Under the pieces are notes generated by a model. The model saw nothing but the letters and a program-made list of their open reading frames with translations. It made no database searches and had not been told where the DNA came from. Shown piece after piece: positions 8,296 through 32,516 of a stretch of 50,496 bases of DNA (the stretch's first letter is position 1; every line of letters begins with the position of its first letter). The position numbers and the translations under genes were made by a program. Source of the stretch: a virus; the IMG/VR virus record IMGVR_UViG_3300034069_000710, positions 1 through 50,496 of that record; one strand, written 5' to 3'.

Positions 8296-8311
8296 TTGAC
8301 GGCGCCGTCAA
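8296..8311. promoter_or_regulatory. Perfect palindrome TTGACGGCGCCGTCAA in the divergent region between the leftward and rightward replication operons
   Basis: Seen directly. It is a member of the recurring TTGAC-N6-GTCAA family. On the minus strand it is followed 18 nt later by TATGGC, then AGGAGG and ATG 8254. Confidence 0.6.
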
Positions 8312-8336
8312 CTTTATTTTGCGAGCCCCCGCCACC

Positions 8337-9977
8337 GTGAAAATTCAGCCTCGCCCCGACCAATGGCAATTCATTTCCGAGATTAACCAGGCGTGGAACC
8401 AGGGCGCCAAGCACGTTGTAGGCGTGGCGAGCACGGGGTTTGGCAAAACCGTGTGCCTATCGCAATTGGTCGAGGATAACCGCGGCGCGGCGTGCGTGGT
8501 GGCGCACCGGCAGGAGCTAGTCGGGCAAATTTCCATGATGCTCGCGCGGTACGGAGTGCGGCACAATATCATCGCTGCGCAGGCCACCGTGCGAGCCATT
8601 GCCGCCGAGCACGTGCGAGAATTCGGGCAATGCTATTACACGCCCTCGAGCCTTGTCGGCGTGGCCTCGGTCGATACGCTCGTGCGCGCCGAGGTCGATG
8701 CGGCGTGGCTGGCGCAGGTCACGCTCGTTATTACCGACGAGGGCCACCACGTCGTCATCGGCAACAAATGGCACGCCGCGCTGCAGCGCTTCCCGAACGC
8801 GCGCGGGCTGCTACCGACCGCCACCCCGTCGCGCGCCGATGGCAAGGGACTAGGCACGCCCGAGCTAGGGGGGTCGGGAATTGCCGATGCGATGGTGCTC
8901 GGTCCGCCTATGCGGTGGCTGATCGACAACGGATTTTTGACGCCATACCGCGTAATTTGCGTGGAAAGCGACCTAAAGCTGCTCGAGTCACAGGTATCGG
9001 CGTCGGGCGATTATTCCCCGCAAACGCTCAAGGATGCGGCCAAAAAATCCCGCATCGTAGGCGACGTGGTGCGCGAGTATCTGCGGTGGGCGCGCGGGCT
9101 GCGCCATATCACCTTTTCGACCGACACCGACACGGCCGCCGCCATGACCACCGCCTACCGGGCCGCGGGCGTGCGCGCCGAGTGCCTTACCGGCAAAACG
9201 CACGACCACCTGCGCCGCGACATTATCAAGCGGTTCGAGCGCGGCGACCTAGAGGAAATCGTGGCCGTCGATATCATTAGCGAAGGGTTCGACCTGCCGG
9301 CAATCGAGGCCGTGAGTTTCGCCCGGCCGTCTATGTCGCTCGGCGTTGTCTGGCAGCAATTCGGCCGCGCGCTGCGCACCTTCGAAGGCAAGACACAAGC
9401 GCTGATTATCGACCACGTGGGGAACGTCATCAATCCCGCCATCGGCCTGCCCGACCGGCCGCGGGTGTGGAGCCTGGCGAACCGCGATAGCCGGAAGAAA
9501 AAGGAAAACGACGCCATCCCGATGCGCGTTTGCGTCGAGTGTTACGAGCCATACGAGCGGACCTATCGGGAATGCCCGCACTGTGGCCACTACCCCGAGC
9601 CCGCCAGCCGCGCCGCCCCGCAATCGGTCGACGGCGACCTGGCTGAAATGTCGCCCGAGCTACTGGCGAAGCTGCGCGGCGACCTCGATCAAGCAGCGTA
9701 CACGCTCGACGAGGAACGCGCCCGGCTCGTAGCTTCACGCGCGCCGCACGTGGCGGTTATGGCGGGGGTAAAGCATCACGCTGAACGGCTCGACACGCTC
9801 GCGCAGCTTCGCCAGACAATGGCCGATTGGGGCGGTCGCCGGTTCGCGCGCGGCGATACCGATAGCATGATGCAACGCGAGTTTTTCCTGCGGTTCGGCG
9901 TCGACGTGATAACCGCGCAGGCATTGAAGCGCGCGGAGGCGCAAGCGCTACTTGACCGTATCGTCAACTCTGTTTAA
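8337..9977 (+). CDS. Superfamily 2 DEAD/DEAH-box DNA helicase with C-terminal zinc ribbon
   Basis: Walker A ASTGFGKT, DEAH-like ITDEGHH, C-terminal CVECYEP...CPHCGH. Start taken as GTG 8337, downstream of the palindrome. ATG 8268 or GTG 8256 are alternatives. Confidence 0.8.
   Translation: MKIQPRPDQWQFISEINQAWNQGAKHVVGVASTGFGKTVCLSQLVEDNRGAACVVAHRQELVGQISMMLARYGVRHNIIAAQATVRAIAAEHVREFGQCYYTPSSLVGVASVDTLVRAEVDAAWLAQVTLVITDEGHHVVIGNKWHAALQRFPNARGLLPTATPSRADGKGLGTPELGGSGIADAMVLGPPMRWLIDNGFLTPYRVICVESDLKLLESQVSASGDYSPQTLKDAAKKSRIVGDVVREYLRWARGLRHITFSTDTDTAAAMTTAYRAAGVRAECLTGKTHDHLRRDIIKRFERGDLEEIVAVDIISEGFDLPAIEAVSFARPSMSLGVVWQQFGRALRTFEGKTQALIIDHVGNVINPAIGLPDRPRVWSLANRDSRKKKENDAIPMRVCVECYEPYERTYRECPHCGHYPEPASRAAPQSVDGDLAEMSPELLAKLRGDLDQAAYTLDEERARLVASRAPHVAVMAGVKHHAERLDTLAQLRQTMADWGGRRFARGDTDSMMQREFFLRFGVDVITAQALKRAEAQALLDRIVNSV
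9952..9967 (+). promoter_or_regulatory. TTGACCGTATCGTCAA motif with TAATCA 17 nt after the TTGACC hexamer; putative promoter/operator
   Basis: Seen directly at the 3' end of the helicase gene, upstream of ATG 10004. Confidence 0.55.
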
Positions 9978-10003
9978 TCATTGCTGGATTGGGAGTTTAT
10001 CGA

Positions 10004-10174
10004 ATGGAAAAAGGCTTTTATTGGGTACGTAACCGCGCCTGCGGGATTCTTACCATAGCCTGCTGCAGCGGACACTATTGGTTCATTCTCAACGGGCTTA
10101 CGGGGGGTTGGACGGAAGCCGAGGTGCGCGAGGATTATGAAATTCTCGACCGTATTTCCGAGCCGCGCTCGTGA
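10004..10174 (+). CDS. Hypothetical small protein (56 aa)
   Basis: ATG preceded by GGGAG. Its stop overlaps the GTG of the next gene (GTGA). Confidence 0.5.
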   Translation: MEKGFYWVRNRACGILTIACCSGHYWFILNGLTGGWTEAEVREDYEILDRISEPRS

Positions 10175-10656
10175 GACTCCCCATTGACCTGCGCACGTGG
10201 GCGCTTCGCCACAATGTCACGCCCGCCGCGCTTGGCGAGCTAGCCGAAATTCTCGGTGCCGGATCGCAACCGGAAGGCGAGGAAGGCGCAAGCGAAGGCC
10301 GCGTGCAGAGCCGGGTCCGCCTGGCCGCACCGTTCCACGGGATGAAGCTATGGCGGAACAATGTCGGCGCGCTGCTCGACAAGCGCGATATTCCCGTTCG
10401 GTTCGGCCTCGCGAATGATACCCCGGCCTTGAACAAAAAGCTCAAGTCGGGCGACCTTATCGGCTGGCGCAGCGTGGAAATCACGGGTGCCATGGTCGGC
10501 TCGGTAATCGCGCAATTCGTGTCGTTCGAATGCAAGCATGCGGGGTGGCATTACACCGGCGACGAGCACGAGCAGGCGCAACAGCGGTGGGCCGCGCTCG
10601 TTGAACTGGCAGGCGGCCACGCCCGGTTCGTCACCGACCCCGAGGGAATGGCATGA
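10171..10656 (+). CDS. VRR-NUC domain nuclease (PD-(D/E)XK fold)
   Basis: RNNVGA...SGDLIGW...FECK...EHEQAQQRWAALVELAGG matches my memory of the VRR-NUC pattern. Helicase plus VRR-NUC pairing is typical. Confidence 0.7.
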   Translation: MRLPIDLRTWALRHNVTPAALGELAEILGAGSQPEGEEGASEGRVQSRVRLAAPFHGMKLWRNNVGALLDKRDIPVRFGLANDTPALNKKLKSGDLIGWRSVEITGAMVGSVIAQFVSFECKHAGWHYTGDEHEQAQQRWAALVELAGGHARFVTDPEGMA

Positions 10657-11765
10657 CCTGGCAGCTTCTCCACGCCGATTGCCGCGTGGTAATGTCCAAC
10701 ATGGGCGACGAGACAATCGACGCCGTGGTTTGCGACCCGCCGTATCACCTCACGAGCATAGTCAAGCGGTTTGGCCCCGGCTCGGCACCGCAGCAATTCG
10801 GCACCGATGGCGCCTTCGCGCGCGCCGCCCGGGGCTTCATGGGGCAGACGTGGGACGGCGGCGATATAGCATTCGACCCGACGCTATGGGCCGAGGTGCT
10901 GCGCGTGCTCAAACCGGGCGGCCACCTCGTCGCCTTCAGCGGCACGCGGACATACCACCGCATGGCCTGCGCGATTGAGGATGCCGGTTTCGAAATTCGC
11001 GATATGCTCGAATGGCTTTACGGGTCGGGCTTTCCCAAGGGCGGGCTAGACGACGAGGGCCGCGGCAGCGCGCTAAAGCCGGCGCACGAGCCAATGTGTC
11101 TGGCGCGAAAATCGTTCAAGGGAAGCGCCGCGGGGTGCGTTGAGGCGCACGGTACCGGGCTGCTCAATATTGACGCTTGCCGCGTACCTAGCGACGAAGT
11201 TACCGGGTGGGGCGGGGCTCGAGGAGGAAGCGACGACGCTACACAATCGAAAGGCCGCAACTACCGTTTAGGAGAGGGAGAAGCGAGGCCCGTTCTCGGA
11301 CGTTTCCCCGCGAATGTCTGCCACGACGGGTCGCTTGAGGTGGTCGCGCAATTTCCGGCCGAAGCTAAGGGCGGGGCATACCCCGCGCAGCGAGGGGCAA
11401 ATGCCGTCTACGGCGCCTCTAGCGGGGGTAGCGATTTTGTAGGGTCGATGGGCGATAGCGGCAGCGCGGCGCGTTTCTTCTACTGCGCTAAGGCAAGCCG
11501 GCGTGACCGTAACGAGGGCGTCGGCGAGCTAGCCGGCAACATTCATCCGACCGTCAAACCAACCGACCTGATGCGTTGGCTCGTGCGTCTCGTTTGCCCG
11601 CCCGGCGGCGTCGTGTTCGACCCGTTCGCGGGGTCGGGCAGTACGGGCAAGGCTGCGTTGCTCGAGGGGCGGCGGTTCATCGGCGTCGAGATGACTGCGG
11701 AATATATCCCCATAGCTCGGGCGCGTATCGAATACGCAGCGCGGTTGACGGCGGGGTCAAACTAA
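10653..11765 (+). CDS. DNA methyltransferase, beta-class (N6-adenine or N4-cytosine)
   Basis: Motif IV VVCDPPY near the N-terminus and motif I FDPFAGSGSTG near the C-terminus give the beta-class order. HPTVKP motif. Confidence 0.85.
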   Translation: MTWQLLHADCRVVMSNMGDETIDAVVCDPPYHLTSIVKRFGPGSAPQQFGTDGAFARAARGFMGQTWDGGDIAFDPTLWAEVLRVLKPGGHLVAFSGTRTYHRMACAIEDAGFEIRDMLEWLYGSGFPKGGLDDEGRGSALKPAHEPMCLARKSFKGSAAGCVEAHGTGLLNIDACRVPSDEVTGWGGARGGSDDATQSKGRNYRLGEGEARPVLGRFPANVCHDGSLEVVAQFPAEAKGGAYPAQRGANAVYGASSGGSDFVGSMGDSGSAARFFYCAKASRRDRNEGVGELAGNIHPTVKPTDLMRWLVRLVCPPGGVVFDPFAGSGSTGKAALLEGRRFIGVEMTAEYIPIARARIEYAARLTAGSN

Positions 11766-11773
11766 GGATATGC

Positions 11774-12082
11774 GTGCAAATTATGAGCGAGAAAGTCACC
11801 AACCGCAACCGAGCCGTGCTCGACGCTGCCCTGCGCCTTGCGGCGTTGCGCGGCTATCGCAACATTACCCGGCAGCAGGTGGCCGACGAGGCGCAGGTGG
11901 CCGTCGGATCGGTGAACAATGCGTTCGGGACGATGGACGGATTGCGCGACGCCGTGATGGCCGCGGCGGTTGCCGGGGAGCGGTACGAGATTATTGCGCA
12001 GGGGCTCGCCGACCGGCACCCGGCAACCACCAATCTGCCCCCGAGCGTGCGGCAGCAGGCTTTCGCATCGCTGGCGGCGTAA
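11774..12082 (+). CDS. Small TetR-like helix-turn-helix DNA-binding protein
   Basis: AALRLAALRGYRNITRQQVADEAQVAVGSVNNAFGT resembles the TetR_N HTH. GTG 11774 lies 5 nt after AAGGA; ATG 11783 is the alternative start. Confidence 0.5.
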   Translation: MQIMSEKVTNRNRAVLDAALRLAALRGYRNITRQQVADEAQVAVGSVNNAFGTMDGLRDAVMAAAVAGERYEIIAQGLADRHPATTNLPPSVRQQAFASLAA

Positions 12083-12147
12083 GCCGTCTCGCTCACCGTC
12101 GGATTAGGAGCTTGCGGGCCGGATGGCCTAGCGCGAGGGGATAACAC

Positions 12148-14571
12148 GTGCTCGAATTGCCTGCCCCGCTCGCGCCTCTTGCCGCTTTCCCGCAATTCGT
12201 AACGTACCGCCTCGTGCCGAGCATTAAGCCCGGCAAGATGGACAAGCTTCCCTGCGATTGGCGCGACGGCCGGGTGGTATCCGCGCACCTCTCCGCGAAC
12301 CGCACCACCTTTGCCAATGCTGCCGCCGCGGTCGCCGCCGGGCGCGGCCAGGGCGTCGGGTTCGTGTTCACCGCCGACGACCCGTTTTGGTTCCTCGATA
12401 TCGACGGCGCGCTGCAGGCCGATAACACGTGGTCGCCGATGGCGGCCGAGTTATGCGCCGCGCTGCCTGGCGCCGCGGTGGAGATATCGCAAAGCGGCAC
12501 CGGCCTGCATATTTTTGGCACGGGCGCGGTACCTGAGCATGGGTGTAAGAATATCCCGCTCGGCCTCGAATTCTACCACGAGGGGCGCTTTGCCGCGCTC
12601 ACCGGGCAGGGCGCCGTCGGCGACGTGATGACCGATTGCACGGCGCTCCTGCCCGGGCTCGTGTCGCAATATTTCCCGATGGGCGCCGCCACCACCGCCG
12701 GCCCCGAGGAATGGACAAGCGAGCCGGTGCCCGAGTGGGACGGCCCGACCGACGACGACGACTTGATACGGCGCGCGCTCGGCTCGGCCGACCGTTCCGC
12801 CGCGGTCGCGTTCGGTGGCGAGGGCGTGACTTTCCGCGATCTATGGGAAGCCAATCCCGACGCGCTCGGCAAACGCTGGCCAGATACCGGGCAAAAGGGC
12901 GGGCCTTACGACGCTTCGAGCGCCGACGGTGCGCTAGCCGCGCATTTGGCATTCTGGACCGGCAAAAATTGCGAGCGCATCCGCGATCTTATGTACCGCT
13001 CGGCGCTGCTGCGTGACAAATGGGAGGCCCGGGGCGACTATTACCTGCCGCGCACCATCCTGCGCGCTGCCGGGTTGTCAACCGAGGTTGCCAAGGGATC
13101 AAGCAAGCCGCTTCCCGAGCCGGTCACGGTTGAGGCTGCGCAGGCCGCCAACGTGACCTTGCGCACCTCGGGGGAATTCCTCGGCGTCGACGGGCAGCTT
13201 ACTTATTTCGCCGGCTGCGTGTACGTCCAAGCTGACGACCGCGTTTACGTGCCCGACGGCGGCCTGCTCAACAGATCGCGGTTCGATGCGACGTACGGCG
13301 GCTACCAATTTGTCATCGATCCCCAAGGCCAAAAGATGACGACGAGCGCGTGGGAAGTGTTCACGCAAAACCGGGTCTATGCCGCCCCGTGGTGTCATGC
13401 GCTATGCTTCCGCCCCGAACAGCCGAGCGGCGCTCTTATCGCCGAGGAGGGGCGAACGCTGCTCAATACTTACGTTCCCATCACAACCCGCCGGGTTAAG
13501 GGTGACGCGAGCCGCTTTACGGGCTTCCTCGCCAAAATTCTGCCCGAGGAGCGCGACCGGCAAATTCTACTGTCGTACATGGCGTCAATGCTGCGCAACC
13601 CCGGGTTTAAATTCCAGTGGTGGCCGGTGCTGCAGGGCGCCGAGGGCAATGGTAAATCGCTTCTGCTGCGCGTGCTGTCGCATTGCGTGGGGCAGCGCTA
13701 TACGCACCTCGTCGACGTGCACAAGATGGCCAAGCAAGGCACCGGCTTTAACGGCTGGATTCAAGGCAACTTATTCCTTGGTATCGAGGAAATATACGTT
13801 GCCGAGCGCCGCGACTTTCTCGAAGCGTTCAAAGCATATGTTACGAACGACCGGCTGCCGCTCGAGAAAAAGGGGGTCGACGCATTTACCGGAGACAACC
13901 GAGTTAATGGTTTGATGCTTACTAACCACCGCGACGGCGTACCGATTAGCATTGACGGCCGCCGGTATGCCGTATTCTTCACGGCGCAGCAAACGGCCGA
14001 GGACGTGACCGCTGCCGGCATGGGGGGCACTTACTTTCCCGACCTGTACGATTGGCTCAAAGGGCGCAAAGCATATGCGCACCTCGGCGCTGACTATGGG
14101 TATGCGGTCGTCAACGATTATTTGCGCGAGTATGCCATTGCGGAGGAATTCGACCCGGCCGGTATCTGCATGCGCGCACCCGAGACGAGCAGCACGAGCG
14201 CCGCGCTTGTCGCCAGCCGCGGCCGTGCCGAGCAGGAAATTGTCGAGGCTATCGAATCGGCGCGGCCTGGTTTTGCCAACGGATGGATTTCCAGCAAGGC
14301 GCTTGACGACTTGCTAGAGCGCATTCGCGCCAACGTCCCGCGCACCAAGCGCCGCGCGCTGCTGCAGGGCCTCGGGTACGACTACCACCCGCATTTGCAC
14401 GAAGGCCGAACGAATGTGGTCGTGCAGCCCGACAACGGAAAGCCGCGGCTCTACGTCAAACGCGGCCACCTCGTTACGCAGCTTGCGAACGCGGCCGAGA
14501 TCGCCAAGCGCTACACCCGCGACCAGGCGTCCGCGTCGGGTATGGACGCCGAGGCCGCTTTTGGTAGTTGA
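12148..14571 (+). CDS. Bifunctional primase-polymerase (AEP) fused to an SF3/D5-type helicase
   Basis: AEP motifs FLDIDG (DxD) and SQSGTGLHIFG (sGxGxH). Walker A GAEGNGKS further downstream. 807 aa. Confidence 0.8.
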   Translation: MLELPAPLAPLAAFPQFVTYRLVPSIKPGKMDKLPCDWRDGRVVSAHLSANRTTFANAAAAVAAGRGQGVGFVFTADDPFWFLDIDGALQADNTWSPMAAELCAALPGAAVEISQSGTGLHIFGTGAVPEHGCKNIPLGLEFYHEGRFAALTGQGAVGDVMTDCTALLPGLVSQYFPMGAATTAGPEEWTSEPVPEWDGPTDDDDLIRRALGSADRSAAVAFGGEGVTFRDLWEANPDALGKRWPDTGQKGGPYDASSADGALAAHLAFWTGKNCERIRDLMYRSALLRDKWEARGDYYLPRTILRAAGLSTEVAKGSSKPLPEPVTVEAAQAANVTLRTSGEFLGVDGQLTYFAGCVYVQADDRVYVPDGGLLNRSRFDATYGGYQFVIDPQGQKMTTSAWEVFTQNRVYAAPWCHALCFRPEQPSGALIAEEGRTLLNTYVPITTRRVKGDASRFTGFLAKILPEERDRQILLSYMASMLRNPGFKFQWWPVLQGAEGNGKSLLLRVLSHCVGQRYTHLVDVHKMAKQGTGFNGWIQGNLFLGIEEIYVAERRDFLEAFKAYVTNDRLPLEKKGVDAFTGDNRVNGLMLTNHRDGVPISIDGRRYAVFFTAQQTAEDVTAAGMGGTYFPDLYDWLKGRKAYAHLGADYGYAVVNDYLREYAIAEEFDPAGICMRAPETSSTSAALVASRGRAEQEIVEAIESARPGFANGWISSKALDDLLERIRANVPRTKRRALLQGLGYDYHPHLHEGRTNVVVQPDNGKPRLYVKRGHLVTQLANAAEIAKRYTRDQASASGMDAEAAFGS

Positions 14572-14583
14572 CGGCGCGGTCAA
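14568..14583 (+). promoter_or_regulatory. TTGACGGCGCGGTCAA motif overlapping the primase stop codon; putative promoter/operator
   Basis: Seen directly. Followed by GATATGGG and then a GGAG RBS and ATG 14629. Confidence 0.55.
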
Positions 14584-14628
14584 CTTGGGCGATATGGGGA
14601 TTCCCATGACGCTTTTGGAGACAAAAAT

Positions 14629-14997: not shown

Positions 14998-15004
14998 CCC
15001 TCGG

Positions 15005-15035
15005 GGGCTCGGTTTCGGCCGGGCCCTCTCGCTTT
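15005..15035 (+). terminator. Possible intrinsic terminator (GGGCTCGG / CCGGGCCC stem with one G-U pair, loop TTTCGG, then TCTCGCTTT)
   Basis: Seen directly, 8 nt after the stop at 14997. Confidence 0.4.
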
Positions 15036-15047
15036 GGAGAAGGCATA

Positions 15048-17822: not shown

Positions 17823-17841
17823 CACCCATTGAAATTAGAAG

Positions 17842-17857
17842 TTGACCGAGCCGTCAA
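17842..17857 (+). promoter_or_regulatory. TTGACCGAGCCGTCAA motif with TAGGCA 17 nt after TTGACC; putative promoter/operator
   Basis: Seen directly in the 83-nt gap before ATG 17906. Confidence 0.6.
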
Positions 17858-17905
17858 CTTGTCGTAGGCAGGTCGCAACGCAACGCTTTGGATAAGGCTT
17901 TGACC

Positions 17906-18678: not shown

Positions 18679-18681
18679 GCT

Positions 18682-19832: not shown

Positions 19833-19996
19833 AACCTTACGCTCCCGACAATAACCGCGGGCGCAATGACGCCGGGCACCGGGTGCACCACCGCACCGCC
19901 GATAATTCGAAAGCTTGCGCCCGTGCTTTTGCCAAGTCGTTGCGGCACGCAGCACGGCAGGAAGCTCGGCGACTGATCGAAAATAACGCCGAATGA
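19829..19996 (+). CDS. Small basic hypothetical protein (55 aa)
   Basis: ATGA coupling at 19829. Confidence 0.45.
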   Translation: MKPYAPDNNRGRNDAGHRVHHRTADNSKACARAFAKSLRHAARQEARRLIENNAE

Positions 19997-20018
19997 CCCG
20001 CCCCGCGGTGCATTTCGT

Positions 20019-20147
20019 ATGGTTCCGCAGCGCATATGGGGGCCGCCCGACTTCGTGCACCACGGATGGGATCGACGCGCCGCACGAGAGATTGCGCCGG
20101 CCGATCGCTCTTACGCGGACCTCCCGGGCGTGAAGCTGCCCGAGTAG
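20019..20147 (+). CDS. Possible small ORF (42 aa)
   Basis: ATG-initiated, high GC3 frame (MVPQRIWGPPDFVHHGWDRR...). No clear RBS. Confidence 0.25.
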   Translation: MVPQRIWGPPDFVHHGWDRRAAREIAPADRSYADLPGVKLPE

Positions 20148-20148
20148 A

Positions 20149-20319
20149 TTAGGCCGCCTGCCGCAAGGCTAAGGCGTGCTCGTATTCCATTCGCTGCCGC
20201 AGATCAGCCCGCCGCTTCTGGTCGGGAAGGCTGCCGCGCGCCTCCCAATGCAGGTGGTCGAGGCGGTCGGCGCAATGCTGGCAATGGTCGCCGTCGAAAT
20301 ATGCGCGCTCTGCGTACAT
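20149..20319 (-). CDS. Small hypothetical protein (56 aa), isolated leftward gene abutting the iteron region
   Basis: ATG 20319 preceded by AGGAAA. The rest of track ORF 20149..20559 is read-through of non-coding repeat DNA. Confidence 0.5.
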   Translation of the reverse strand: MYAERAYFDGDHCQHCADRLDHLHWEARGSLPDQKRRADLRQRMEYEHALALRQAA

Positions 20320-20322
20320 GGA

Positions 20323-20397
20323 AATTTTCCTGAGATTTGCGTAATTTTTAAAATTTAGCCGAAATTTGCTAATTTTGTGTAAATTCGCAGCGAAAAT
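20323..20397. other. AT-rich block of A/T tracts (AAATTTT, AATTTTT, AAAATTT, AAATTT, AATTTT, AAATT, AAAATT) recurring roughly every 10 bp; likely intrinsically bent DNA
   Basis: Seen directly. It stands out in an otherwise GC-rich genome. Confidence 0.6.
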
Positions 20398-20703
20398 TCC
20401 CCCGTACCCAAAAAATCCCCCGTAGTTCCCCCGTATAAACCCCGTAGGTACGGGGGCGTAAAATTTGGCAGTTTTCTGCGGGTTACAGCGGTCCCCCGTA
20501 TCGATTCCCCCGAATTCCCCCGTACCCGTAGTTTTCTCTGCGCCTGCGTGCGTGTGCATGCGCGCGCGTATGTAGCAATGTGCAAAAACACCCCTAGTAC
20601 GGGGGAATTCCTATATTATCGTTATATTTCAAAGGGTTATTATCCCCCATAGGTACGGGGAAATACCGGGGTTTATACGGGGGATTTCGTCGGGTACGGG
20701 GGA
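20398..20703. repeat. Iteron array. TCCCCCGTA (extended AA[A/T]TCCCCCGTA) is direct at 20398, 20416, 20427, 20492 and 20516 (variant at 20506). It is inverted as TACGGGGGA at 20598, 20676 and 20695. Palindromic units CCCC(G/A)TAGGTACGGGG lie at 20440 and 20644.
   Basis: Each copy was read and indexed directly from the sequence. Function (origin, packaging site or operator array) is unknown. Confidence 0.9.
20545..20574. other. 30-nt perfect alternating pyrimidine-purine tract (tgcgtgcgtgtgcatgcgcgcgcgtatgta), Z-DNA-prone, at the centre of the iteron array
   Basis: Checked base by base: 15 consecutive Py-Pu steps. Confidence 0.85.
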
Positions 20704-20727
20704 TTTACGATTTGGGCTTGTCGGGGC

Positions 20728-20743
20728 GTGACTAAAGCGTCAT
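20728..20743 (+). promoter_or_regulatory. Degenerate member of the palindrome family (GTGACTAAAGCGTCAT), 13 nt upstream of the terS ATG
   Basis: Seen directly. The core TGAC-N6-GTCA is conserved but the outer bases differ. Confidence 0.35.
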
Positions 20744-20755
20744 TTACGAGGGGTC

Positions 20756-21607: not shown

Positions 21608-21610
21608 GGG

Positions 21611-21626
21611 TTGACCGCCGCGTCAA
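21611..21626 (+). promoter_or_regulatory. TTGACCGCCGCGTCAA motif with TAGGCA 16 nt after TTGACC; putative promoter/operator
   Basis: Seen directly, 4 nt after the terS stop. Confidence 0.6.
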
Positions 21627-21651
21627 TAAGCGTAGGCAGGTTGCTCCACAG

Positions 21652-21771: not shown

Positions 21772-22103
21772 CCTCGGCGACCATGCGGCTTATCGAGGCC
21801 GTCGAACGGCTGGAAATGACCGGTGTAATCGGCGACGGCAGGGTGGCGCAGCTTCACGACCTGGCCGCCGCGGCGCGGATCGAGGTCACGCCGGACGTGC
21901 CCGACGATTGGGCGGCCATGGGAAAATTCCCGGGCATTCTGCCGCTTATCGAAGTGACCGGCCGCTACACCTGGGCGGAGCGAGTCCTGCGGTATGCCCG
22001 AAACGCGCACGATTGCTCGACGTTCGGCGGCCGGTCACGCATAAGCGACGCGCAGCGGGAATTGAGTAAGGCTCGGGCCGAATACCAAGCGTTGCTCGGG
22101 TGA
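21768..22103 (+). CDS. Hypothetical protein (111 aa)
   Basis: ATGA-coupled start inside track ORF 21726..22103. Confidence 0.55.
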   Translation: MTSATMRLIEAVERLEMTGVIGDGRVAQLHDLAAAARIEVTPDVPDDWAAMGKFPGILPLIEVTGRYTWAERVLRYARNAHDCSTFGGRSRISDAQRELSKARAEYQALLG

Positions 22104-22651
22104 AGCCCGCCCGCACCCCGCGCGAGCGTTCGGGCATGGTGCTTTGCCCCCGTGACCACCTCGGCCGGTTGAAGCCTATGGACGCGCTCGCCCGGTTTGC
22201 TGCCAAATGCGAATTCGACGCGACCACCGGCTGCGTATTGTGGCGGGGCGGCACCACGCAGGGCCGCGGTAACTCGGCGGTCTATGGCAGCTTTTGGGAC
22301 GAAGGGCGGCGGTGGTTCGCGCATCGGTGGGCCGGGGTCAAAATTCACGGGCTCGACCTCACGGCGGCGCAGGCGGGCCATTGCTGCCCCGGTCGGCCGA
22401 ATACCCTATGCGTCCAGCATATCGAACCGCAGACGAACGCCGAGAACCAGGCCGAGCGCAACGCGCGATTGCACCAGACGCCGAGCGAGCGCCAGTATTG
22501 GCTTTTCGTGTCGCTTGGGATCGAGCCGGCGCCCGGGGTGGCCGTGGAGCCCGTCGAGCCCGACTCCCTGCCCTTTTTCACCCCGCCCGATTGGCTGCGG
22601 CCTTTCCTAGTTGACGCCACCGTCAACTCTGCTACGGATGCACCATTCTAG
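22100..22651 (+). CDS. HNH endonuclease
   Basis: TGCVLWRGG...FAHRWAG...GHCCPGRPNTLCVQHIEPQTNAEN fits the phage HNH pattern. GTGA-coupled start at 22100; ATG 22178 is the alternative. Confidence 0.7.
   Translation: MKPARTPRERSGMVLCPRDHLGRLKPMDALARFAAKCEFDATTGCVLWRGGTTQGRGNSAVYGSFWDEGRRWFAHRWAGVKIHGLDLTAAQAGHCCPGRPNTLCVQHIEPQTNAENQAERNARLHQTPSERQYWLFVSLGIEPAPGVAVEPVEPDSLPFFTPPDWLRPFLVDATVNSATDAPF
22611..22626 (+). promoter_or_regulatory. TTGACGCCACCGTCAA motif with TACGGA 16 nt after TTGACG; putative promoter/operator
   Basis: Seen directly inside the 3' end of the HNH gene, followed by TAGGAGG and ATG 22661. Confidence 0.55.
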
Positions 22652-22660
22652 GAGGTTTCG

Positions 22661-22840
22661 ATGCTTCGACTTTTCGCTGCCGCGGTGCTGATCGCCGCTA
22701 CCATCATGCTTTTTCTGTCGGTCGTCTCGGTGCTGTTCTGCGTTTTCGCCGGGCTGTGGTTCGCGGTCGTGTTGTTCCTGGCGATGGGCGCGTTCGCCCT
22801 CGTCGGCACGCGCGCAAGCTGGAAAGCATTTCGGGCATGA
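22661..22840 (+). CDS. Small two-TM membrane protein (59 aa)
   Basis: Not in the track. Strong RBS TAGGAGG 7 nt upstream. Almost entirely hydrophobic sequence. Its stop overlaps the next ATG. Confidence 0.6.
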   Translation: MLRLFAAAVLIAATIMLFLSVVSVLFCVFAGLWFAVVLFLAMGAFALVGTRASWKAFRA

Positions 22841-24276: not shown

Positions 24277-24285
24277 CCGGGCCGG

Positions 24286-24642
24286 GTGGGAATTCTCGTG
24301 CGCCTGCACGCGCTCGGCGATTTCTATTCCGTCCCGTACGTCCGGTTCTGGTCGGCGCTGCTGCGTGAATTTCCGCGCCTCGCTGCCTACGGATACACTG
24401 CGTACGATCCGTCGAGCGATATCGGCAAGGCGATAACGGCGGCTAAGCGCGAGCACGGCGCGCGGTTCGCGGTGCGGTGGTCGAATGGCAAGGGAGGCGA
24501 GGATTGCGCTGTGCCGGTGCGGTCGGTTGACGAGGCGGTCAATTCGATTGTATGCCCCGAGCAGACCGGCGCGACCGTGGCGTGCGCAACGTGCGGGCTG
24601 TGTTGGGGAACGCGGCGAAATATCGCCTTTTTGGAGCATTGA
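24286..24642 (+). CDS. Hypothetical protein; resembles only the C-terminal part of GP88-type phage proteins (possible 5'-truncated remnant)
   Basis: VRLHALGDFYSVPYVRFW...YGYT and C-terminal CPEQTG...CATCGLCW recall the family. The N-terminal Cys-rich part I expect is absent. GTG start. Confidence 0.4.
   Translation: MGILVRLHALGDFYSVPYVRFWSALLREFPRLAAYGYTAYDPSSDIGKAITAAKREHGARFAVRWSNGKGGEDCAVPVRSVDEAVNSIVCPEQTGATVACATCGLCWGTRRNIAFLEH
24527..24542 (+). promoter_or_regulatory. TTGACGAGGCGGTCAA motif inside the GP88-like ORF, about 100 nt upstream of ATG 24646
   Basis: Seen directly. Followed by GTATGC/TATGCC at 17-18 nt. Confidence 0.45.
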
Positions 24643-24645
24643 ACT

Positions 24646-24843
24646 ATGGCAAAAATCCGTATCATTTTTGAGGGCGAGCAGGGCTCGGGGAAAACCACGC
24701 TTATGCGGGCTATCGCGCGCCGCCTGGGCCCCGACGTGGTGACGGTCGACCCTCGCAGGGTGGGTAGCGACCTGCACGCGCTTGAAATCGACCCAAGCCC
24801 CGTATTCCTTGCCGCTCTCCGAGCCGAAAACGGCCAAGCGTAG
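24646..24843 (+). CDS. Miniature P-loop protein (65 aa) with Walker A GEQGSGKTT
   Basis: ATG preceded by GGAG. The Walker A motif is read directly. No Walker B is evident in so short an ORF. Confidence 0.5.
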   Translation: MAKIRIIFEGEQGSGKTTLMRAIARRLGPDVVTVDPRRVGSDLHALEIDPSPVFLAALRAENGQA

Positions 24844-25342: not shown

Positions 25343-25542
25343 TGACCGGCTACACACGCGAGCAGCAGGAAAGGCTCGACGAGTTGGCCGCTCGAAAGCG
25401 GGAGATTGACTTGCGGGCGGATATCCTCGCTACCGCCGTCAAGCAACGGATGCGGGAAACGGGCGAACCGGTGCGCGAGGATTACCCGAGCCGCGGTGCC
25501 TATCGAGCGGCCCATTCGCTATGGCGGAAGCGGCACCCGTGA
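25342..25542 (+). CDS. Hypothetical protein (66 aa, coiled-coil-like)
   Basis: TAATG coupling at 25342. Confidence 0.5.
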   Translation: MTGYTREQQERLDELAARKREIDLRADILATAVKQRMRETGEPVREDYPSRGAYRAAHSLWRKRHP

Positions 25543-25547
25543 TTTCC

Positions 25548-25832
25548 ATGACCGTCCCGCAATATCGCCGTCGGGAAGTGACGATAAATGGCCATTGCGT
25601 CACGATGGCGGGCAAGCGCCACGAGCTACTTGCGGCATTGCTCGTCAATCGCGGCCAATGGCTTACCTACGACCAAATTATAGAAATCATGTGGCCCGAC
25701 CCGGATAATCAGCCGCTAACGGCGCTCGGTTGCATCGATCAGGCGTTATTGCGTCTGCGTCGGGTGCTCGGGGTGGACGCTATCGAATGCCGGTGGGGCC
25801 TCGGGCTAAGGATGCCAATATGCGACAAGTAA
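25548..25832 (+). CDS. Stand-alone OmpR/PhoB-type winged-helix DNA-binding protein (no receiver domain)
   Basis: VTINGHCVTMAGKRHELLAALLVNRGQWLTYDQIIEIMWPD...IDQALLRLRRVLG...IECRWGLGLRM follows the Trans_reg_C pattern. Confidence 0.6.
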   Translation: MTVPQYRRREVTINGHCVTMAGKRHELLAALLVNRGQWLTYDQIIEIMWPDPDNQPLTALGCIDQALLRLRRVLGVDAIECRWGLGLRMPICDK

Positions 25833-26275: not shown

Positions 26276-26484
26276 CCGACCCATGCGACGCAATGCCCGT
26301 GCACGTGGCGCGCAAATGGGCTGGCCTGCAGGCGTGCGGCTGCCCTGCGGTACCGGCTGTCTGCTCGTGCCCCCCGTCGAGCGGCGGGATATCGTCAACG
26401 ATGGGTGCGGAGGCGCGCTATAGCTTCGAAACGCCGCACCCCCTTTGCGGAATGCAGGTCCCGCGACGGCCCGGTGCGGAATGA
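26272..26484 (+). CDS. Possible Cys-rich small protein (70 aa)
   Basis: ATGA coupling. A competing open frame (26283..26423) makes the call uncertain. Confidence 0.3.
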   Translation: MTDPCDAMPVHVARKWAGLQACGCPAVPAVCSCPPSSGGISSTMGAEARYSFETPHPLCGMQVPRRPGAE

Positions 26485-26578
26485 GAACGCCCCGTAAATG
26501 GTGGTCGGTCGCCCTGCTCAACAAGCGGCGCTCGTGGGGCCTATGGTTTCGCGACCGGGTGGCGAGTAAGCACGGACT

Positions 26579-26995
26579 ATGACCGCGTGCATTACCCTTT
26601 GGCAGCCGTATGCCTCGCTGATTTTCAGCGGGCACAAGGTGTTCGAGACGCGCGGCTTCCGCTATCCGTCGAAATTAGGGGGGCAGCGGCTCGCCATTCA
26701 CGCGGCCAAGCGACCGCTGGCGCAATGCGGCGTATCGACCGGGCTCGACCAACTTTGCCGAGAGGTGTTCGGGCCTGATTACGCGGCTACCTTGCCGCGG
26801 GGTGCGCTGCTCGGGTCCGGTCTATTGGCCGGGTGCTTCTCGACCGATGATTTGCGGCCATTCATTAATCGCGAGGATGATTTGACCGGAGATTTCCGGC
26901 CCGGCCGGTTTGCGTGGCTGCTAGAGGATATCCAAGCACTCGCCGAGCCGCGACCGATGAATGGCAAGCAAGGATGGTCGACCGTTGACCTTTGA
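26579..26995 (+). CDS. ASCH (PUA-like) domain protein
   Basis: CITLWQPYASLIFSGHKVFETRGF...RLAIHAAK fits the ASCH N-terminal pattern. Confidence 0.6.
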   Translation: MTACITLWQPYASLIFSGHKVFETRGFRYPSKLGGQRLAIHAAKRPLAQCGVSTGLDQLCREVFGPDYAATLPRGALLGSGLLAGCFSTDDLRPFINREDDLTGDFRPGRFAWLLEDIQALAEPRPMNGKQGWSTVDL

Positions 26996-28640: not shown

Positions 28641-28921
28641 GGGCAAATACGCGGGTTAGGTCGCATGTCGGGCTGTTCCGTAGCCCCTAGCTATGCGGCC
28701 CCGGTATCCGCGGTTTCCCGCTTCGCTCCATTGGCTTTCGCTTCCCCGTCGCATCCCTATGCCCCGGTCATGCGATAGACGAGGGGGCCTCTCGGGCAGG
28801 TAGCCGCAATTTATATCCTACTAAGGCGGCTGTTTCTGCCAAAGCCTACTCGGCCGCCCGTTCGGAGGCCTCGGCATATTGCCGATTGCCCCGCGCCGCA
28901 ACCCCGTGATAGCCCGGGGCT

Positions 28922-29089
28922 ATGAAAAATTATGAGAAGCCCGAGCCCAATCTACGAAGCATTCGGGGATCGATGGCGCGCATATTTTTCCCGTTGCAGG
29001 TGGTGGCCGTCGCGGCGTTCATCGTCGCGACCGGGCTTGTCGCTATTTGGTGGAGGTCGCGCCGCTTGCCGAAACCGCGGCACCCGTGA
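28922..29089 (+). CDS. Possible small single-TM protein (55 aa; alternative start ATG 28973 gives 38 aa)
   Basis: Not in the track. Open frame containing IFFPLQVVAVAAFIVATGLVAIWW followed by RSRRLPKPRHP. Weak RBS. Confidence 0.35.
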   Translation: MKNYEKPEPNLRSIRGSMARIFFPLQVVAVAAFIVATGLVAIWWRSRRLPKPRHP

Positions 29090-29101
29090 TAACCCCCGCG
29101 T

Positions 29102-31066
29102 ATGAGACTGCAACATATCAAGGATGGCTTGGCCAACCTCTATAGTCGCCTCGGCACCGGGGCCGACCGCAACACGCAGTCGATTTATTCGGTCCCGATG
29201 ATCCCGCAGCAGCAAATTGAGGCGGCTTATCGTTCGTCGTGGCTGGCTCGCAAGGTTCACGACCTGCCCCCGTTTGAGATGACGCGCGAGGGGCGCCGGT
29301 GGGGCGCTACCAAGGAACAAATCGAAGCGCTCGAGGCGTACGAGACCCGCGTGGGTCTATGGCCGAAGTTGTGCGAGGCGATCACGGTGGCCCGGCTGCA
29401 TGGCGGCGGCGCCATAATCGCGGGCGTGCGCGCCGGTGGCTCGGCAGACCCGACAAAGCCGCTGGACGTCACCCGCGTCGGCAAGGACGGCCTGCGCTAC
29501 TTATTCGTCGTGAGCAAAAGCCAACTCTCCGCGCCTAACGGCATGGAACAGGACCCGGAAAGCGATTTTTACCGCCAGCCGGCAATGTATCAAATCGAGG
29601 GCCGGGGCGGCGGCAATATTCAAATTCACCCGTCGCGCGTGTTCCCGTTCAAGGGCAAGCCGCTGCCGCCCGGCATGCTCACAATGTCGGCGTGGGATCA
29701 ATTTTGGGGAGATCCGCTCCTAGTCTCGATCAAGTCGGCAATTGATAACGCTGAGACGTCGCAGGCAGCGGTCGCGACTATCCTGCACGAAATGAAGCAG
29801 GATGTTATCACGATCCCCGGACTTACCGAGCAGATTGGAACCGAGGAAAGCGAGAACCTTATTGCCGCCCGCGTCGAGGCGGTGGCGCGCTTTAAGTCGA
29901 TGTTCAACGCGTTGCTGCTCGATGGCGGCGACGATGAAGGCAACGGCAAAGAGGAATGGGAGACGCGGCAGCTATCGTTCGCGCAACATCCCGAATTGCT
30001 GCGCGCATTCCTCGGCGTGGTCGCCGGCGCCGCCGATATTCCCGTGACCCGGCTTATGGGCGAAAGCCCGGGGGGCATGAATTCGACCGGCAAGGGCGAA
30101 CAGGACGATTTCGACCGGATGATTGGCGCGCAGCAGGGGTTCGAAATCCGTCCCAACCTGCAACGCCTCGACGAAATTCTAATTCGCGCAGCGCTCGGCA
30201 CCCGGCCGCCCGAAATTGTTTGGAAGTTTTCGGCGCTGCGTCCGGTCGACGAGTCCCAAGCCGCCGAGATCGAAAACAAGGAGGCCGATAGCGTCACCAA
30301 AATCGCCTCGTCGGCGCTCGTACCCTCGGTCGCGCTCGCAAAGGCCGTGCAAAACCGCATGGTCGAAAGCGGTCGGTGGCCGGGGCTCGACAAGGCGCTC
30401 GAGGAAGCCGAGGCCGCGGGTAAGCTGCCCCCCAAGGTGGCGGGAGAGGAAGACAACGGCGCCGAGCCCAAGCCCGAGCCGGTACTGCCCGCCGCGAACG
30501 ACAACACGCTGCAGCAAAAGGCCGAGGCGCTGCAAAAGCGGGGCACCGTCACGCGGGACCAGGCAATTGCGCTTATTGCCGACGCTGCGCCGCGCCCCCT
30601 CTACGTGCGGCGTAATCTCACCAACGGCGCCGAGTTCATCGCGTGGGCCAAGGCGCAGGGATTCGAAACCACGCTGCCGGCCGATGACCTGCACGTGACT
30701 ATCGCCTATAGCCGCCAGCCGGTCGACTGGATCAAGGCGGGGTCGGATTCTTGGGGCGGCGACGACGACGGCAATCTGCGCATCGTGCCTGGCGGCGCGC
30801 GACTCGTAGAACCGCTCGGCGACAAGGGGGCTATCGTGCTCCTGTTCGCCTCGTCGCGCCTCACGTGGCGGCACGAGGATATCAAGCGCGAGGCGGGCGC
30901 ATCGAACGATTACGACGAATATCAACCGCACGTCACCATCACGTACAAAAAGCCGGAAGGGCTCGACCTGCGCAACGTGGAGCCGTACCGCGGCGCGCTC
31001 GAATTCGGGCCGGAGATTTTCGAGGAGATTACGGATAATTGGTCGGGTGATGTAACGGAGGAATGA
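29102..31066 (+). CDS. Portal protein (DUF1073-type) fused to a C-terminal 2H-phosphoesterase domain
   Basis: N-terminal DGLANLYSRLGTGADRN...YRSSWLARKVHDLPPFEMTREG fits DUF1073 portals. The last 157 aa carry LHVTIAY and PHVTITY (two HxTx motifs). Confidence 0.85.
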   Translation: MRLQHIKDGLANLYSRLGTGADRNTQSIYSVPMIPQQQIEAAYRSSWLARKVHDLPPFEMTREGRRWGATKEQIEALEAYETRVGLWPKLCEAITVARLHGGGAIIAGVRAGGSADPTKPLDVTRVGKDGLRYLFVVSKSQLSAPNGMEQDPESDFYRQPAMYQIEGRGGGNIQIHPSRVFPFKGKPLPPGMLTMSAWDQFWGDPLLVSIKSAIDNAETSQAAVATILHEMKQDVITIPGLTEQIGTEESENLIAARVEAVARFKSMFNALLLDGGDDEGNGKEEWETRQLSFAQHPELLRAFLGVVAGAADIPVTRLMGESPGGMNSTGKGEQDDFDRMIGAQQGFEIRPNLQRLDEILIRAALGTRPPEIVWKFSALRPVDESQAAEIENKEADSVTKIASSALVPSVALAKAVQNRMVESGRWPGLDKALEEAEAAGKLPPKVAGEEDNGAEPKPEPVLPAANDNTLQQKAEALQKRGTVTRDQAIALIADAAPRPLYVRRNLTNGAEFIAWAKAQGFETTLPADDLHVTIAYSRQPVDWIKAGSDSWGGDDDGNLRIVPGGARLVEPLGDKGAIVLLFASSRLTWRHEDIKREAGASNDYDEYQPHVTITYKKPEGLDLRNVEPYRGALEFGPEIFEEITDNWSGDVTEE

Positions 31067-31668
31067 CGGTGGCCGCCACGCAGATTGTCTACGATCAACT
31101 CGGCCGCCCGTACGAAGCGCTGCCGGTCGACGCCCCCACGCAAGCGCAACTTGACGCCGTGGCGCAGGCTATCCCCAGGGCGGCCACCACCGTTCCCAAA
31201 ACGGAAATGCCGGGAGGTAAAGCTGGCGATGATACGCAGCGATTTGCAACCGCGGACCACGCGCACCCCCGCGTGACGAGCACCACGGTAGGCACCGTGC
31301 AGTCGGGCAATACGGCCGTGGTCGAGTTTACGCGGACGTTCACCGCCGAACCGGGAATCAACTACTCAGAATTGCCGGCGACCGCCGACACGACCGCCGC
31401 CCCGGCGGCCGATACGAGCGCCACCGCGCAGCCGACCACGCACAAGGTCATCGCCTGGACGAAAGGGCCAACTGCCACCCTACCGAACGCGGCCGCTACG
31501 GCGTACACCGGGTGCACGGTGCGGGTCTACAAAGCGCAGACGGTGCCGCAAAATCTTGTCAATCTCCTGCTCGGCGGCGTGTTCAACCTGTTCGGGGCGA
31601 GCGTCGTCGGCACGCGCTTCTCGATCATTGCTGTTGCGCGCAGCGACGTGAACGCGACAACCCCGTGA
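31063..31668 (+). CDS. Hypothetical virion-module protein (201 aa)
   Basis: ATGA coupling to the portal stop. Thr/Ala-rich. Confidence 0.6.
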   Translation: MTVAATQIVYDQLGRPYEALPVDAPTQAQLDAVAQAIPRAATTVPKTEMPGGKAGDDTQRFATADHAHPRVTSTTVGTVQSGNTAVVEFTRTFTAEPGINYSELPATADTTAAPAADTSATAQPTTHKVIAWTKGPTATLPNAAATAYTGCTVRVYKAQTVPQNLVNLLLGGVFNLFGASVVGTRFSIIAVARSDVNATTP

Positions 31669-32498
31669 AAATCGACCTAGCCGGGATTCTCAAGGCCGCC
31701 GGAAAAACCCGGCAACGCTATGTCGTGGGCCGCGCAATTGTGCCGACGTCTGCGCAGGAGCAAGCGCTGCGTGTTATCTATATGCGGGTTGTACGCGGGT
31801 GGCTCGACGAGTGGGCCAACCGCATTTTGCCTGCCTATCGTCGTTCACTCGAGGCGCTGCCAGTTATCGGCGATTCGGTCGATAGCACACAAGATACTGT
31901 CGACGAGGCAAACGACGTGCTTACCCGGCTCGTGCTGTCGCTCGGCGCCGACCTCGAGGATTGGGCGGTGCGGGTTGAGCAATGGCACCGCAAGCAATTC
32001 GCCTCGTCGTTTACCGCGGCGGGCGTAAAGCTCGATACGCTGCTAGGCCCGGCCGAGGCAAAGGTGACGCTCGAGGCCACGCTAGCGGAAAATCTCTCGC
32101 TCATTCGTTCGCTTAACGATCAGCAGCGCAACGGGATTTCCGGGGCCGTGTTCCGCGGGCTCAACAATCGCACGCCCGCGCGCGACGTGGCCCGGGAAAT
32201 TCGCAAGGTTGCCGAGGTCGGACAAAGCCGGGCCGAGTTGATCGCGGCCGACCAATTGCAAAAGCTATCCGGTCGGCTCGATCAGGAGCGGCAGCAGCAG
32301 GTCGGCGCCGACGAATTCGATTGGGTGCATAGCGCCAAGCGCTATCCGCGGATTGAACACCTCGAGCGCGACGGCAAGCGCTTTGCATGGAATAGCCCCG
32401 TGGGCCGCGACGATCCCCCAGGCCGTGCAATTCGCTGCGGCTGCCGCGCGCGCCCCGTGATCGACCTCGAAAAGTTGCTTGCGCAGGGTGACGACTAA
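31665..32498 (+). CDS. Head morphogenesis protein (Mu F / SPP1 gp7-like)
   Basis: EHLERDGKRFAWNSP...DPPGRAIRCGCRARP fits the Phage_Mu_F C-terminal motif. GTGA-coupled start at 31665. Confidence 0.7.
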   Translation: MKIDLAGILKAAGKTRQRYVVGRAIVPTSAQEQALRVIYMRVVRGWLDEWANRILPAYRRSLEALPVIGDSVDSTQDTVDEANDVLTRLVLSLGADLEDWAVRVEQWHRKQFASSFTAAGVKLDTLLGPAEAKVTLEATLAENLSLIRSLNDQQRNGISGAVFRGLNNRTPARDVAREIRKVAEVGQSRAELIAADQLQKLSGRLDQERQQQVGADEFDWVHSAKRYPRIEHLERDGKRFAWNSPVGRDDPPGRAIRCGCRARPVIDLEKLLAQGDD

Positions 32499-32500
32499 TC

Positions 32501-32516
32501 TTGACGCCACGGTCAA
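32501..32516 (+). promoter_or_regulatory. TTGACGCCACGGTCAA motif 3 nt after the head-morphogenesis stop, upstream of the scaffold and capsid genes
   Basis: Seen directly. A further GTCAA lies at 32529. Confidence 0.5.

Follow-up and report, generated by a model that had tools for sequence, protein, structure and literature searches.

Positions 1 to 50,496 of the IMG/VR virus record IMGVR_UViG_3300034069_000710 (hereafter the window) are 63.7% G+C and encode a tailed phage. Its minus-strand genes include those for a family-A DNA polymerase-like protein, a DUF7352 protein and a DUF2800/PD-(D/E)XK nuclease. The plus strand carries genes for a helicase, an endonuclease, a DNA methylase, a small TetR_N protein (mini-TetR), a primase-polymerase with DUF5906, and terS, followed by an HNH-like nuclease, terL, a portal protein fused to an Acb1 domain, a Mu-F-like protein, a DUF2213 protein and the tail genes. 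Dispersed among these genes is a 16-bp palindrome, TTGAC-N6-GTCAA, whose upstream half coincides with the predicted -35 element of a sigma70-type promoter and whose downstream half is a putative binding site for a regulatory protein.

A pattern search of the window recovers nine exact copies of the palindrome (8296, 9952, 11745, 14568, 17842, 21611, 22611, 24527 and 32501); the pattern equals its reverse complement, and all nine are therefore listed on the plus strand. Dinucleotide-preserving shuffles, which define chance expectation in the window, yield 0.02 copies, and 0 of 100 shuffles reach nine, in keeping with the estimate in the initial annotation that far fewer than one copy would occur by chance. 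Tolerating one mismatch raises the count to 13, where 0.76 would be expected. The eight exact copies listed in the initial annotation are all present, but a ninth, at 11745, had been overlooked, as had a leftward copy at 5996, a good site whose score against a matrix built from related phages is similar to that of the exact copies. Given with strand and any -10 hexamer, the copies are:

5996..6011, minus strand: putative leftward promoter/operator copy, ATGACCTCGCCGTCAA on the plus strand and read as TTGACGGCGAGGTCAT on the minus strand, upstream of gene 4799-5902; -10 TACGCC at 5988-5983 (minus strand), 17-nt spacer
8296..8311, no strand assigned: perfect 16-bp palindrome TTGACGGCGCCGTCAA in the divergent region; leftward -10 TATGGC at 8287-8282 (minus strand), 18-nt spacer, ahead of the minus-strand gene starting at 8254
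9952..9967, plus strand: putative promoter/operator copy TTGACCGTATCGTCAA in the final 26 nt of the helicase gene, before the gene starting at 10004; -10 TAATCA at 9975-9980, 17-nt spacer
11745..11760, plus strand: putative promoter/operator copy TTGACGGCGGGGTCAA ahead of the mini-TetR gene; -10 TATGCG at 11769-11774, 18-nt spacer
14568..14583, plus strand: putative promoter/operator copy TTGACGGCGCGGTCAA with a 4-nt overlap with the primase stop codon; -10 TATGGG at 14593-14598, 19-nt spacer
17842..17857, plus strand: putative promoter/operator copy TTGACCGAGCCGTCAA, intergenic; -10 TAGGCA at 17865-17870, 17-nt spacer
20728..20743, plus strand: degenerate copy GTGACTAAAGCGTCAT keeping only TGAC-N6-GTCA, 12 nt before the terS ATG
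21611..21626, plus strand: putative promoter/operator copy TTGACCGCCGCGTCAA, 3 nt past the terS stop codon; -10 TAGGCA at 21633-21638, 16-nt spacer
22611..22626, plus strand: putative promoter/operator copy TTGACGCCACCGTCAA at the 3' end of the HNH-like gene 22100-22651, before the gene at 22661; -10 TACGGA at 22633-22638, 16-nt spacer
24527..24542, plus strand: putative promoter/operator copy TTGACGAGGCGGTCAA in the 3' part of open reading frame (ORF) 24286-24642, before the gene at 24646; -10 TATGCC at 24551-24556, 18-nt spacer
32501..32516, plus strand: palindrome copy TTGACGCCACGGTCAA, 2 nt past the stop codon of the Mu-F-like gene
42038..42053, minus strand: one-mismatch copy within the tape-measure gene, reading TTGACGGTTCCGTCAC on the minus strand; no -10

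Four copies (14568, 17842, 21611 and 32501) lie between genes or at a stop codon, those at 9952, 11745 and 22611 lie within the final 25-40 nt of the preceding gene, and the 24527 copy sits about 115 nt within the 3' part of a predicted ORF. From the palindrome to the next start codon, the distance at the window sites is 22-141 nt. Both replication arms are covered (5996, 8296, 9952, 11745 and 14568), as are the small-gene blocks (17842, 21611, 22611 and 24527) and one head-gene junction (32501), and no confident copy is found at 33-50 kb, which holds most of the late structural region. The one-mismatch copies inside late genes (35537, 35690 and 42038) are compatible with chance, that at 42038 being a chance match or else an orphan binding site. 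The degenerate copy noted earlier at 20728 does exist in its reduced form, but it scores under the family-matrix cut-off and, ending 12 nt before the terS ATG, cannot be the terS promoter; its place in the system is uncertain. The initial annotation had placed its eight sites at transcription-unit boundaries, a description that goes beyond what the sequence shows. A terminator pattern is matched by only one of the ten window copies (8296). Since terminator-like sites do not go with them, the copies look like extra promoters inside co-directional gene arrays.

Promoter geometry and conservation in related phages

All ten window sites start with TTGAC[G/C] on the strand of transcription, close to the -35 consensus TTGACA, and in nine of them a TA-initial hexamer follows at a distance of 16-19 nt, mostly without the final T of the -10 consensus. 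Each hexamer named in the initial annotation was confirmed, and two were added, TATGCG at 11769 and the minus-strand TACGCC at 5988-5983; the 32501 copy has none at this distance. A missing final T is usual in the -10 elements of alphaproteobacterial promoters. A generic scan for E. coli-type promoters finds 9952 alone in the window.

The same arrangement is seen well beyond the window. Megablast with 22 kb of the window finds no close DNA relative among cultured phages. A search with the primase led to 80 related IMG/VR loci (labelled L001 onward, with L081 for JD001, L091 for CP-T1 and L092 for phiPLPE). Through the primase and the TetR-like protein, the cultured relatives comprise Klebsiella Jedunavirus phages, the Vibrio cholerae phages CP-T1 and 138, and phages of Edwardsiella, Shewanella, Pectobacterium and Oceanospirillum. 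Most of the 80 loci possess several motif copies each. Counted over 84 related phage sequences (1.56 Mb, 39-68% GC), the exact motif occurs 153 times where composition predicts 1.1, and its relaxed form (TGAC-N6-GTCA) occurs 313 times where 20.9 are predicted; for example, JD001 carries 7 exact and 14 relaxed copies, and CP-T1 carries 6 and 9, respectively. One copy is clearly orthologous: in many loci it comes right behind the primase gene, with differing flanking sequence (its counterpart in the window is 14568). In L001, L003, L004, L037, L038, L041, L043, L045-L047 and L075, the TGA stop codon of the primase gene is the TGA within TTGAC, a conserved overlap of coding sequence and promoter.

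A sequence logo of 126 non-redundant sites displays T, A/T and A at +23 to +25, corresponding to a 17-bp spacer to the -10 element, and a blank upstream flank. In JD001, for which the host promoters are E. coli-like, TTGACG is followed after 17 nt by TATAGT, TACAGT, TAGAGT, TATCTT, CATACT, TAACAT or TAGTAT, and these sites lie 55-70 nt ahead of annotated starts on both strands. The geometry is also one-sided. Among 64 exact palindromes in rightward gene blocks of the loci, 45 have a TA-initial hexamer 16-18 nt to the right and only 10 have one on the mirrored left side, indicating that the promoters are unidirectional; a bidirectional promoter at co-directional sites was accordingly ruled out, the mirrored side being without a -10. 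Likewise, where one outer base is imperfect, the perfect TTGAC occupies the transcription-upstream side in 37 of 37 sites in leftward blocks and 59 of 78 in rightward blocks (Fisher p = 2e-16). These observations support the proposal of the initial annotation that the upstream half is a sigma70-type -35 element, as predicted from the direction in which TTGAC faces and the promoters of JD001. The sequences themselves show that the motif is present, enriched and conserved across the family, and that it has promoter geometry and a defined orientation.

In the myoviruses JD001, CP-T1 and phiPLPE, clusters of short genes run opposite to the structural genes, each with a motif promoter at the divergent junction (in phiPLPE, the CGGCAA variant). 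These opposite-strand clusters look like early gene islands interspersed in late operons.

No description of the motif was found in the literature on the motif itself, on Jedunavirus promoters or on JD001, KpV52, PEAT2, CP-T1, 138 and phiPLPE. The repeats reported for phiPLPE, CP-T1 and 138 are tandem repeats unrelated to the palindrome. A tetR-like gene in these three phages was viewed as a co-opted cellular regulator by Comeau et al. (2012), who reported no such motif.

The downstream half-site and its candidate binder

If the upstream half serves as a -35 element, the downstream half calls for an explanation of its own. Its core, GTCA, occupies motif positions 12-15, or about -24 to -21 of the promoter. 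Where -10 elements resemble those of E. coli, most matches to TTGAC-N16-18-TAnnnT have GTCA at positions 12-15, namely 8 of 14 in JD001, 8 of 12 in CP-T1, 6 of 7 in L026 and 5 of 5 in L066. The right half is not an opposite-strand -35, as its -10 partner is missing on that strand. Moreover, the consensus is symmetric further inward, where 83 of the 126 sites have G at position 7 and 89 have C at position 10, and yet the inner positions are not complementary to one another within sites (z = 1.6 and -1.3 relative to shuffles). Consensus symmetry without within-site complementarity fits protein binding, not a hairpin, and we infer that this inward, strand-specific symmetry is the pattern expected from a two-fold symmetric DNA-binding protein. 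The initial annotation had likewise read the right half as evidence for a sequence-specific DNA-binding protein in a 5-N6-5 geometry, for which the box of the TetR-family protein RutR of E. coli provides a precedent. Its analogy to CRP, however, was not borne out: none of the scanned window proteins showed a CRP-like domain, and the half-sites differ from those of CRP (TGTGA-N6-TCACA) and FNR (TTGAT-N4-ATCAA), with FNR differing in spacing as well.

Three candidate regulators had been named at the outset. Only one, the TetR-like protein, is conserved along with the motif; for the other two, Pfam and PHROGs gave no Myb/GcrA-like or NrdR-like protein among the ORFs scanned. Other transcription-factor-like proteins of the window have no homologue in JD001 or the 80 related loci. 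The remaining candidate is the following:

11783..12082, plus strand: mini-TetR gene (P0001), 99 aa, a TetR_N helix-turn-helix plus four short further helices, upstream of the primase gene

The protein matches Pfam TetR_N with E = 1.2e-9 (38.2 bits, cut-off 24 bits), placing a helix-turn-helix in its N-terminal part, and its PDB matches by sequence and by fold are all to TetR-family proteins. An AlphaFold2 model (predicted local distance difference test score, pLDDT, 91) has seven short helices; the top fold matches include RutR/YcdC (3loc), and only the N-terminal ~70 residues superpose on the TetR structures. PHROGs assigns the protein to phrog_8723, of function class unknown, and NCBIfam holds no specific model for it. 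All 75 homologues from a large protein collection are ~99 aa in length.

Several associations tie mini-TetR to the palindrome. The window and JD001 have 11 detectable proteins in common (7 from the replication module and 4 from the head module), among which mini-TetR is the only one resembling a transcription factor; it is also the only such protein that they share with CP-T1. By profile search, 74 of 82 sequences encode a homologue, and its gene almost always directly precedes that of the primase; CP-T1 and phiPLPE have a homologue as well. L028, L030, L061 and L073 have neither mini-TetR nor motif. A copy of the motif stands in the gene's own promoter in the window (11745) and in JD001 (29902), and no more than 120 nt upstream of the gene in ~33 loci. 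In the window (8 nt) and in L004, L005, L010 and L013, the mini-TetR ATG lies 6-8 nt past the predicted -10, so that its mRNA is probably leaderless; some classical phage and transposon repressor genes are expressed from leaderless mRNA. A recognition helix of the type G-[ST]-V-[NS] goes with the motif in 29 of 29 loci, and all motif-less loci have the other type, G-L-[VI]-[ST], with no correction for phylogeny. From these associations, mini-TetR would most probably be the palindrome-binding protein.

It is tempting to suggest the following mechanism, to which we give roughly even chances: host sigma70 promoters carry a dyad bound by mini-TetR, which represses the early and middle units together. 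Each copy would be a host sigma70-type promoter in which the -35 element, TTGAC[G/C], is the upstream half of a dyad, TTGAC-SS-NN-SS-GTCAA, spanning about -35 to -20. The downstream half, unused by RNA polymerase, would be kept by a phage helix-turn-helix protein that binds the dyad. The -35, spacer and -10 of the JD001 promoters are all near consensus, and the host polymerase alone should suffice for them, so that a protein on -35 to -20 would most likely repress, presumably by excluding sigma region 4 from the -35 element. As the regulator would itself be transcribed from a motif promoter within the replication operon, negative autoregulation would be expected, with some ten early and middle units being dampened or shut off in concert, among them the replication genes on both arms and the small-gene blocks. 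Protein binding to the right half, mini-TetR as the binder and repression as the outcome are what we infer here, and a single regulator would presumably govern all of the units together and in this direction.

A number of observations weigh against this mechanism. In the window, the 8296 copy has no acceptable rightward -10, and the 32501 copy, which may be an operator only, has no TA hexamer at 16-19 nt. The -10 elements without the final T (TAGGCA, TACGGA, TATGCC, TATGGG, TATGCG and TACGCC) also do not allow promoter strength in the window's host to be inferred. Neither mini-TetR nor any of its 75 homologues possesses the C-terminal ligand-binding and dimerisation domain of TetR proteins (helices 4-9, ~200 aa in total), and without this usual dimerisation domain, binding as a homodimer is only putative. 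Residues K51, L55 and Y56, with which RutR contacts its site, correspond to V, N and N in mini-TetR, making the RutR parallel one of geometry only. The associations between regulator and motif were computed without correction for phylogeny, and a clean co-variation of recognition helix and half-site was rejected, being only partial: many loci with the helix type G-L-[VI]-[ST] have the canonical motif, and others with it do not; the lysine-bearing L006 and L007 have RutR-like TTGACC on both halves, but they are a single lineage. The right half has drifted beside a retained TTGAC and -10 to CGGCAA (phiPLPE, L022 and L029), GTTAA (L058 and L070), AGCAA (L034) or NACAA (L048, L049 and L079), and phiPLPE and several loci retain mini-TetR where the right half has drifted or gone. 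Conversely, L041 has three sites, and mini-TetR was not detected in its 13 kb of sequence.

The last two observations would be explained if the embedded operator were real but bound by something else, either a host factor present across Proteobacteria (e.g., a RutR-like protein) or an unrecognised phage protein. The outer five-plus-five bases are indeed those of the RutR box, TTGACCAnnTGGTCAA, and several window sites share the GGTCAA ending of RutR sites. However, the motif is kept across hosts and GC contents (Klebsiella, Vibrio and metagenomic relatives of 39-68% GC), which fits a phage-borne factor; its inner bases are G/C-G rather than the C-A of RutR, for which a C-to-G change at position 3 costs ~13-fold in affinity; and no second transcription-factor-like protein is common to the window and JD001. 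We therefore consider a different binder doubtful.

Another account dispenses with the regulator altogether, the sites being promoters only, with GTCA read by RNA polymerase, acting through DNA shape, or left as a relic of ancestral back-to-back bidirectional promoters. In its favour, the left half never drifts, whereas the right half does so in some lineages beside an intact TTGAC and -10, many copies in CP-T1, JD001 and phiPLPE stand at divergent junctions, and inner symmetry is absent within sites. Nevertheless, we know of no contact of sigma70 or core polymerase with a specific tetramer at about -24 to -21, the one-sided -10 excludes present-day bidirectional use in co-directional contexts, and the strand-specific inward symmetry (G7 and C10) is that of a two-fold symmetric binder, leaving this account unlikely.

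The drift of the right half alone (GTCAA, GGCAA, GTTAA, AGCAA) against a fixed left half would also fit a composite site, in which a mini-TetR monomer sits on the GTCA half while sigma70 region 4 holds the TTGAC half. Here, two different helix-turn-helix modules would share the dyad, and mini-TetR would contact sigma as an activator or appropriator, or else as a lock; the premise is that a half-size TetR cannot dimerise as a normal TetR does. Such an arrangement seems decidedly unlikely, although, if true, it would be a new mode of promoter control across a large phage clade that includes therapeutic Klebsiella phages.

Finally, it is very improbable that the palindrome acts as a hairpin, be it a terminator, an element of RNA processing or stability, or a structure in single-stranded DNA for the primase-polymerase. 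Copies do lie at gene ends, the primase stop falls within TTGAC in many relatives, and the 8296 copy, with its 6-bp stem and the tail CTTTATTTTG, satisfies a terminator-like scan. Against this, complementarity is limited to the 5-bp arms with no compensatory inner pairing, the family logo has no T-run after the motif, the G+C-rich stem-loop and T-run of an intrinsic terminator are matched by no window copy but 8296, and neither the orientation-dependent asymmetry nor the one-sided -10 would be expected.

Should repression of the dyad promoters by mini-TetR prove correct, one promoter type with an inbuilt switch would drive most early transcription in a large and environmentally widespread phage clade, which includes the Jedunavirus phages used against Klebsiella, the Vibrio cholerae transducing phage CP-T1 and many uncultured relatives. 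The protein behind the switch would then be one of 99 aa, now filed under unknown function (phrog_8723) or as a co-opted cellular TetR. The circuit is testable, consisting of one small protein, one 16-bp site and the host RNA polymerase, and the cultured Klebsiella and Vibrio phages are suitable for the purpose. The motif could also aid the annotation of promoters in hundreds of phage genomes, and a minimal TetR scaffold without a ligand domain would bear on how such proteins dimerise or cooperate with sigma.

Other features of the window

The sole clue to the host comes from the primase. Two metagenome-assembled genomes (MAGs), a Stakelama sp. MAG (L087, a 123-kb contig) and a Sphingomonadaceae MAG (L089), encode proteins with 76% and 62% identity, respectively, to the window primase. 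On both of these chromosomal-size contigs, only the N-terminal ~320 residues are encoded, corresponding to the primase-polymerase part, and no motif copies are found there. The fragment may be a host clue, with the 76% match pointing to Stakelama (Sphingomonadaceae), or a domesticated fragment.

Upstream of terS lies a non-coding gap of 923 bp (19833-20755), which at 20395-20711 contains at least 12 copies of a 10-12-bp unit, TACGGGGGA(A/T)TT. The array consists of two inverted blocks, reading TCCCCCGTA at 20398-20525 and TACGGGGGA at 20597-20711. It appears iteron-like and is a candidate for a pac or terS-binding region or for an origin. A comparison of shared 10-mers across the long intergenic gaps of the window yielded no other convincing motif.

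Behind the 32501 palindrome (32517-32564), there is a second promoter-like element, TTGTCA-17-TTATTT, followed after 6 nt by the ATG of the DUF2213 gene at 32562. This gene is possibly another with a leaderless start, with the palindrome upstream of its promoter-like element.

The portal protein (29102-31066) combines a Phage_portal_3 domain at residues 37-400 with a C-terminal Acb1 domain directed against the cyclic-oligonucleotide-based antiphage signalling system (CBASS; PF23474, E = 1e-37, residues 499-648), and an anti-defence nuclease would thus be fused to a virion protein. Finally, the 103-aa product of ORF 25521-25832 is a winged-helix protein of the OmpR/PhoB type (Trans_reg_C, E = 1.4e-6) that has no receiver domain, and no homologue of it was detected in JD001 or the related loci. 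It is possibly a second phage transcription factor, perhaps for late genes.

Comparison with known systems

Among known systems, the DNA site is closest to the RutR box, and the proposed regulatory logic is closest to that of the P1 C1 operators, the mycobacteriophage stoperators and the conserved inverted repeats (CIRs) of phiC31. E. coli RutR, a TetR-family protein, binds its box as a single dimer (PMC2475637, PMC2952853). Both the box and the phage motif are 16-bp dyads of 5-N6-5 geometry with identical outer pentamers, TTGAC and GTCAA, but the match is not a full one, as the inner bases are [G/C]G..C[C/G] in the phages (mostly G-G / C-[C/G], with TTGACC on both halves only in the single lineage mentioned above) and CA..TG in the RutR box. 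Furthermore, RutR is a 212-aa uracil-sensing host protein with most of its sites inside genes, whereas the phage sites are fused to a -35 element and the phage protein is 99 aa long, has no ligand-binding domain and carries other recognition-helix residues.

In phage P1, the one repressor C1 acts at many dispersed operators, typically overlapping promoters, and thereby controls many units jointly. Here, ten copies over 5996-32516 stand beside one conserved candidate regulator, which would act on them in a similar way. The P1 operators are 17 bp long, asymmetric and bound by a C1 monomer, in contrast to a dyad with an upstream half that is itself the -35 hexamer; P1 is also temperate, unlike the cultured Jedunavirus relatives, which are described as lytic. 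The stoperators of cluster A mycobacteriophages and the CIRs of the Streptomyces phage phiC31 resemble the palindrome in being short, conserved sites, putatively protein-bound in the present case, with many copies along a phage genome. Stoperators are asymmetric repressor sites that lie in transcribed regions and block elongation. The CIRs are repressor-bound inverted repeats beside conserved early promoters, for which neither the repressor is of the TetR family nor the promoters sigma70-like.

Canonical TetR-family regulators, such as TetR (acting at tetO), QacR and LuxR/HapR, are ~190-220 aa long, use helices 4-9 as a ligand-binding and dimerisation domain, and control one or a few local operons. 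Those acting at -35 regions have in common with the phage system the TetR_N fold, a palindrome over the core promoter and a copy of it in the regulator's own promoter; mini-TetR differs in being half-size (seven short helices) and in that it would control about ten dispersed promoters. Taken as a whole, what sets the phage system apart from those already known is that the upstream half of the putative operator is the -35 hexamer itself and that the candidate regulator is a half-size TetR.

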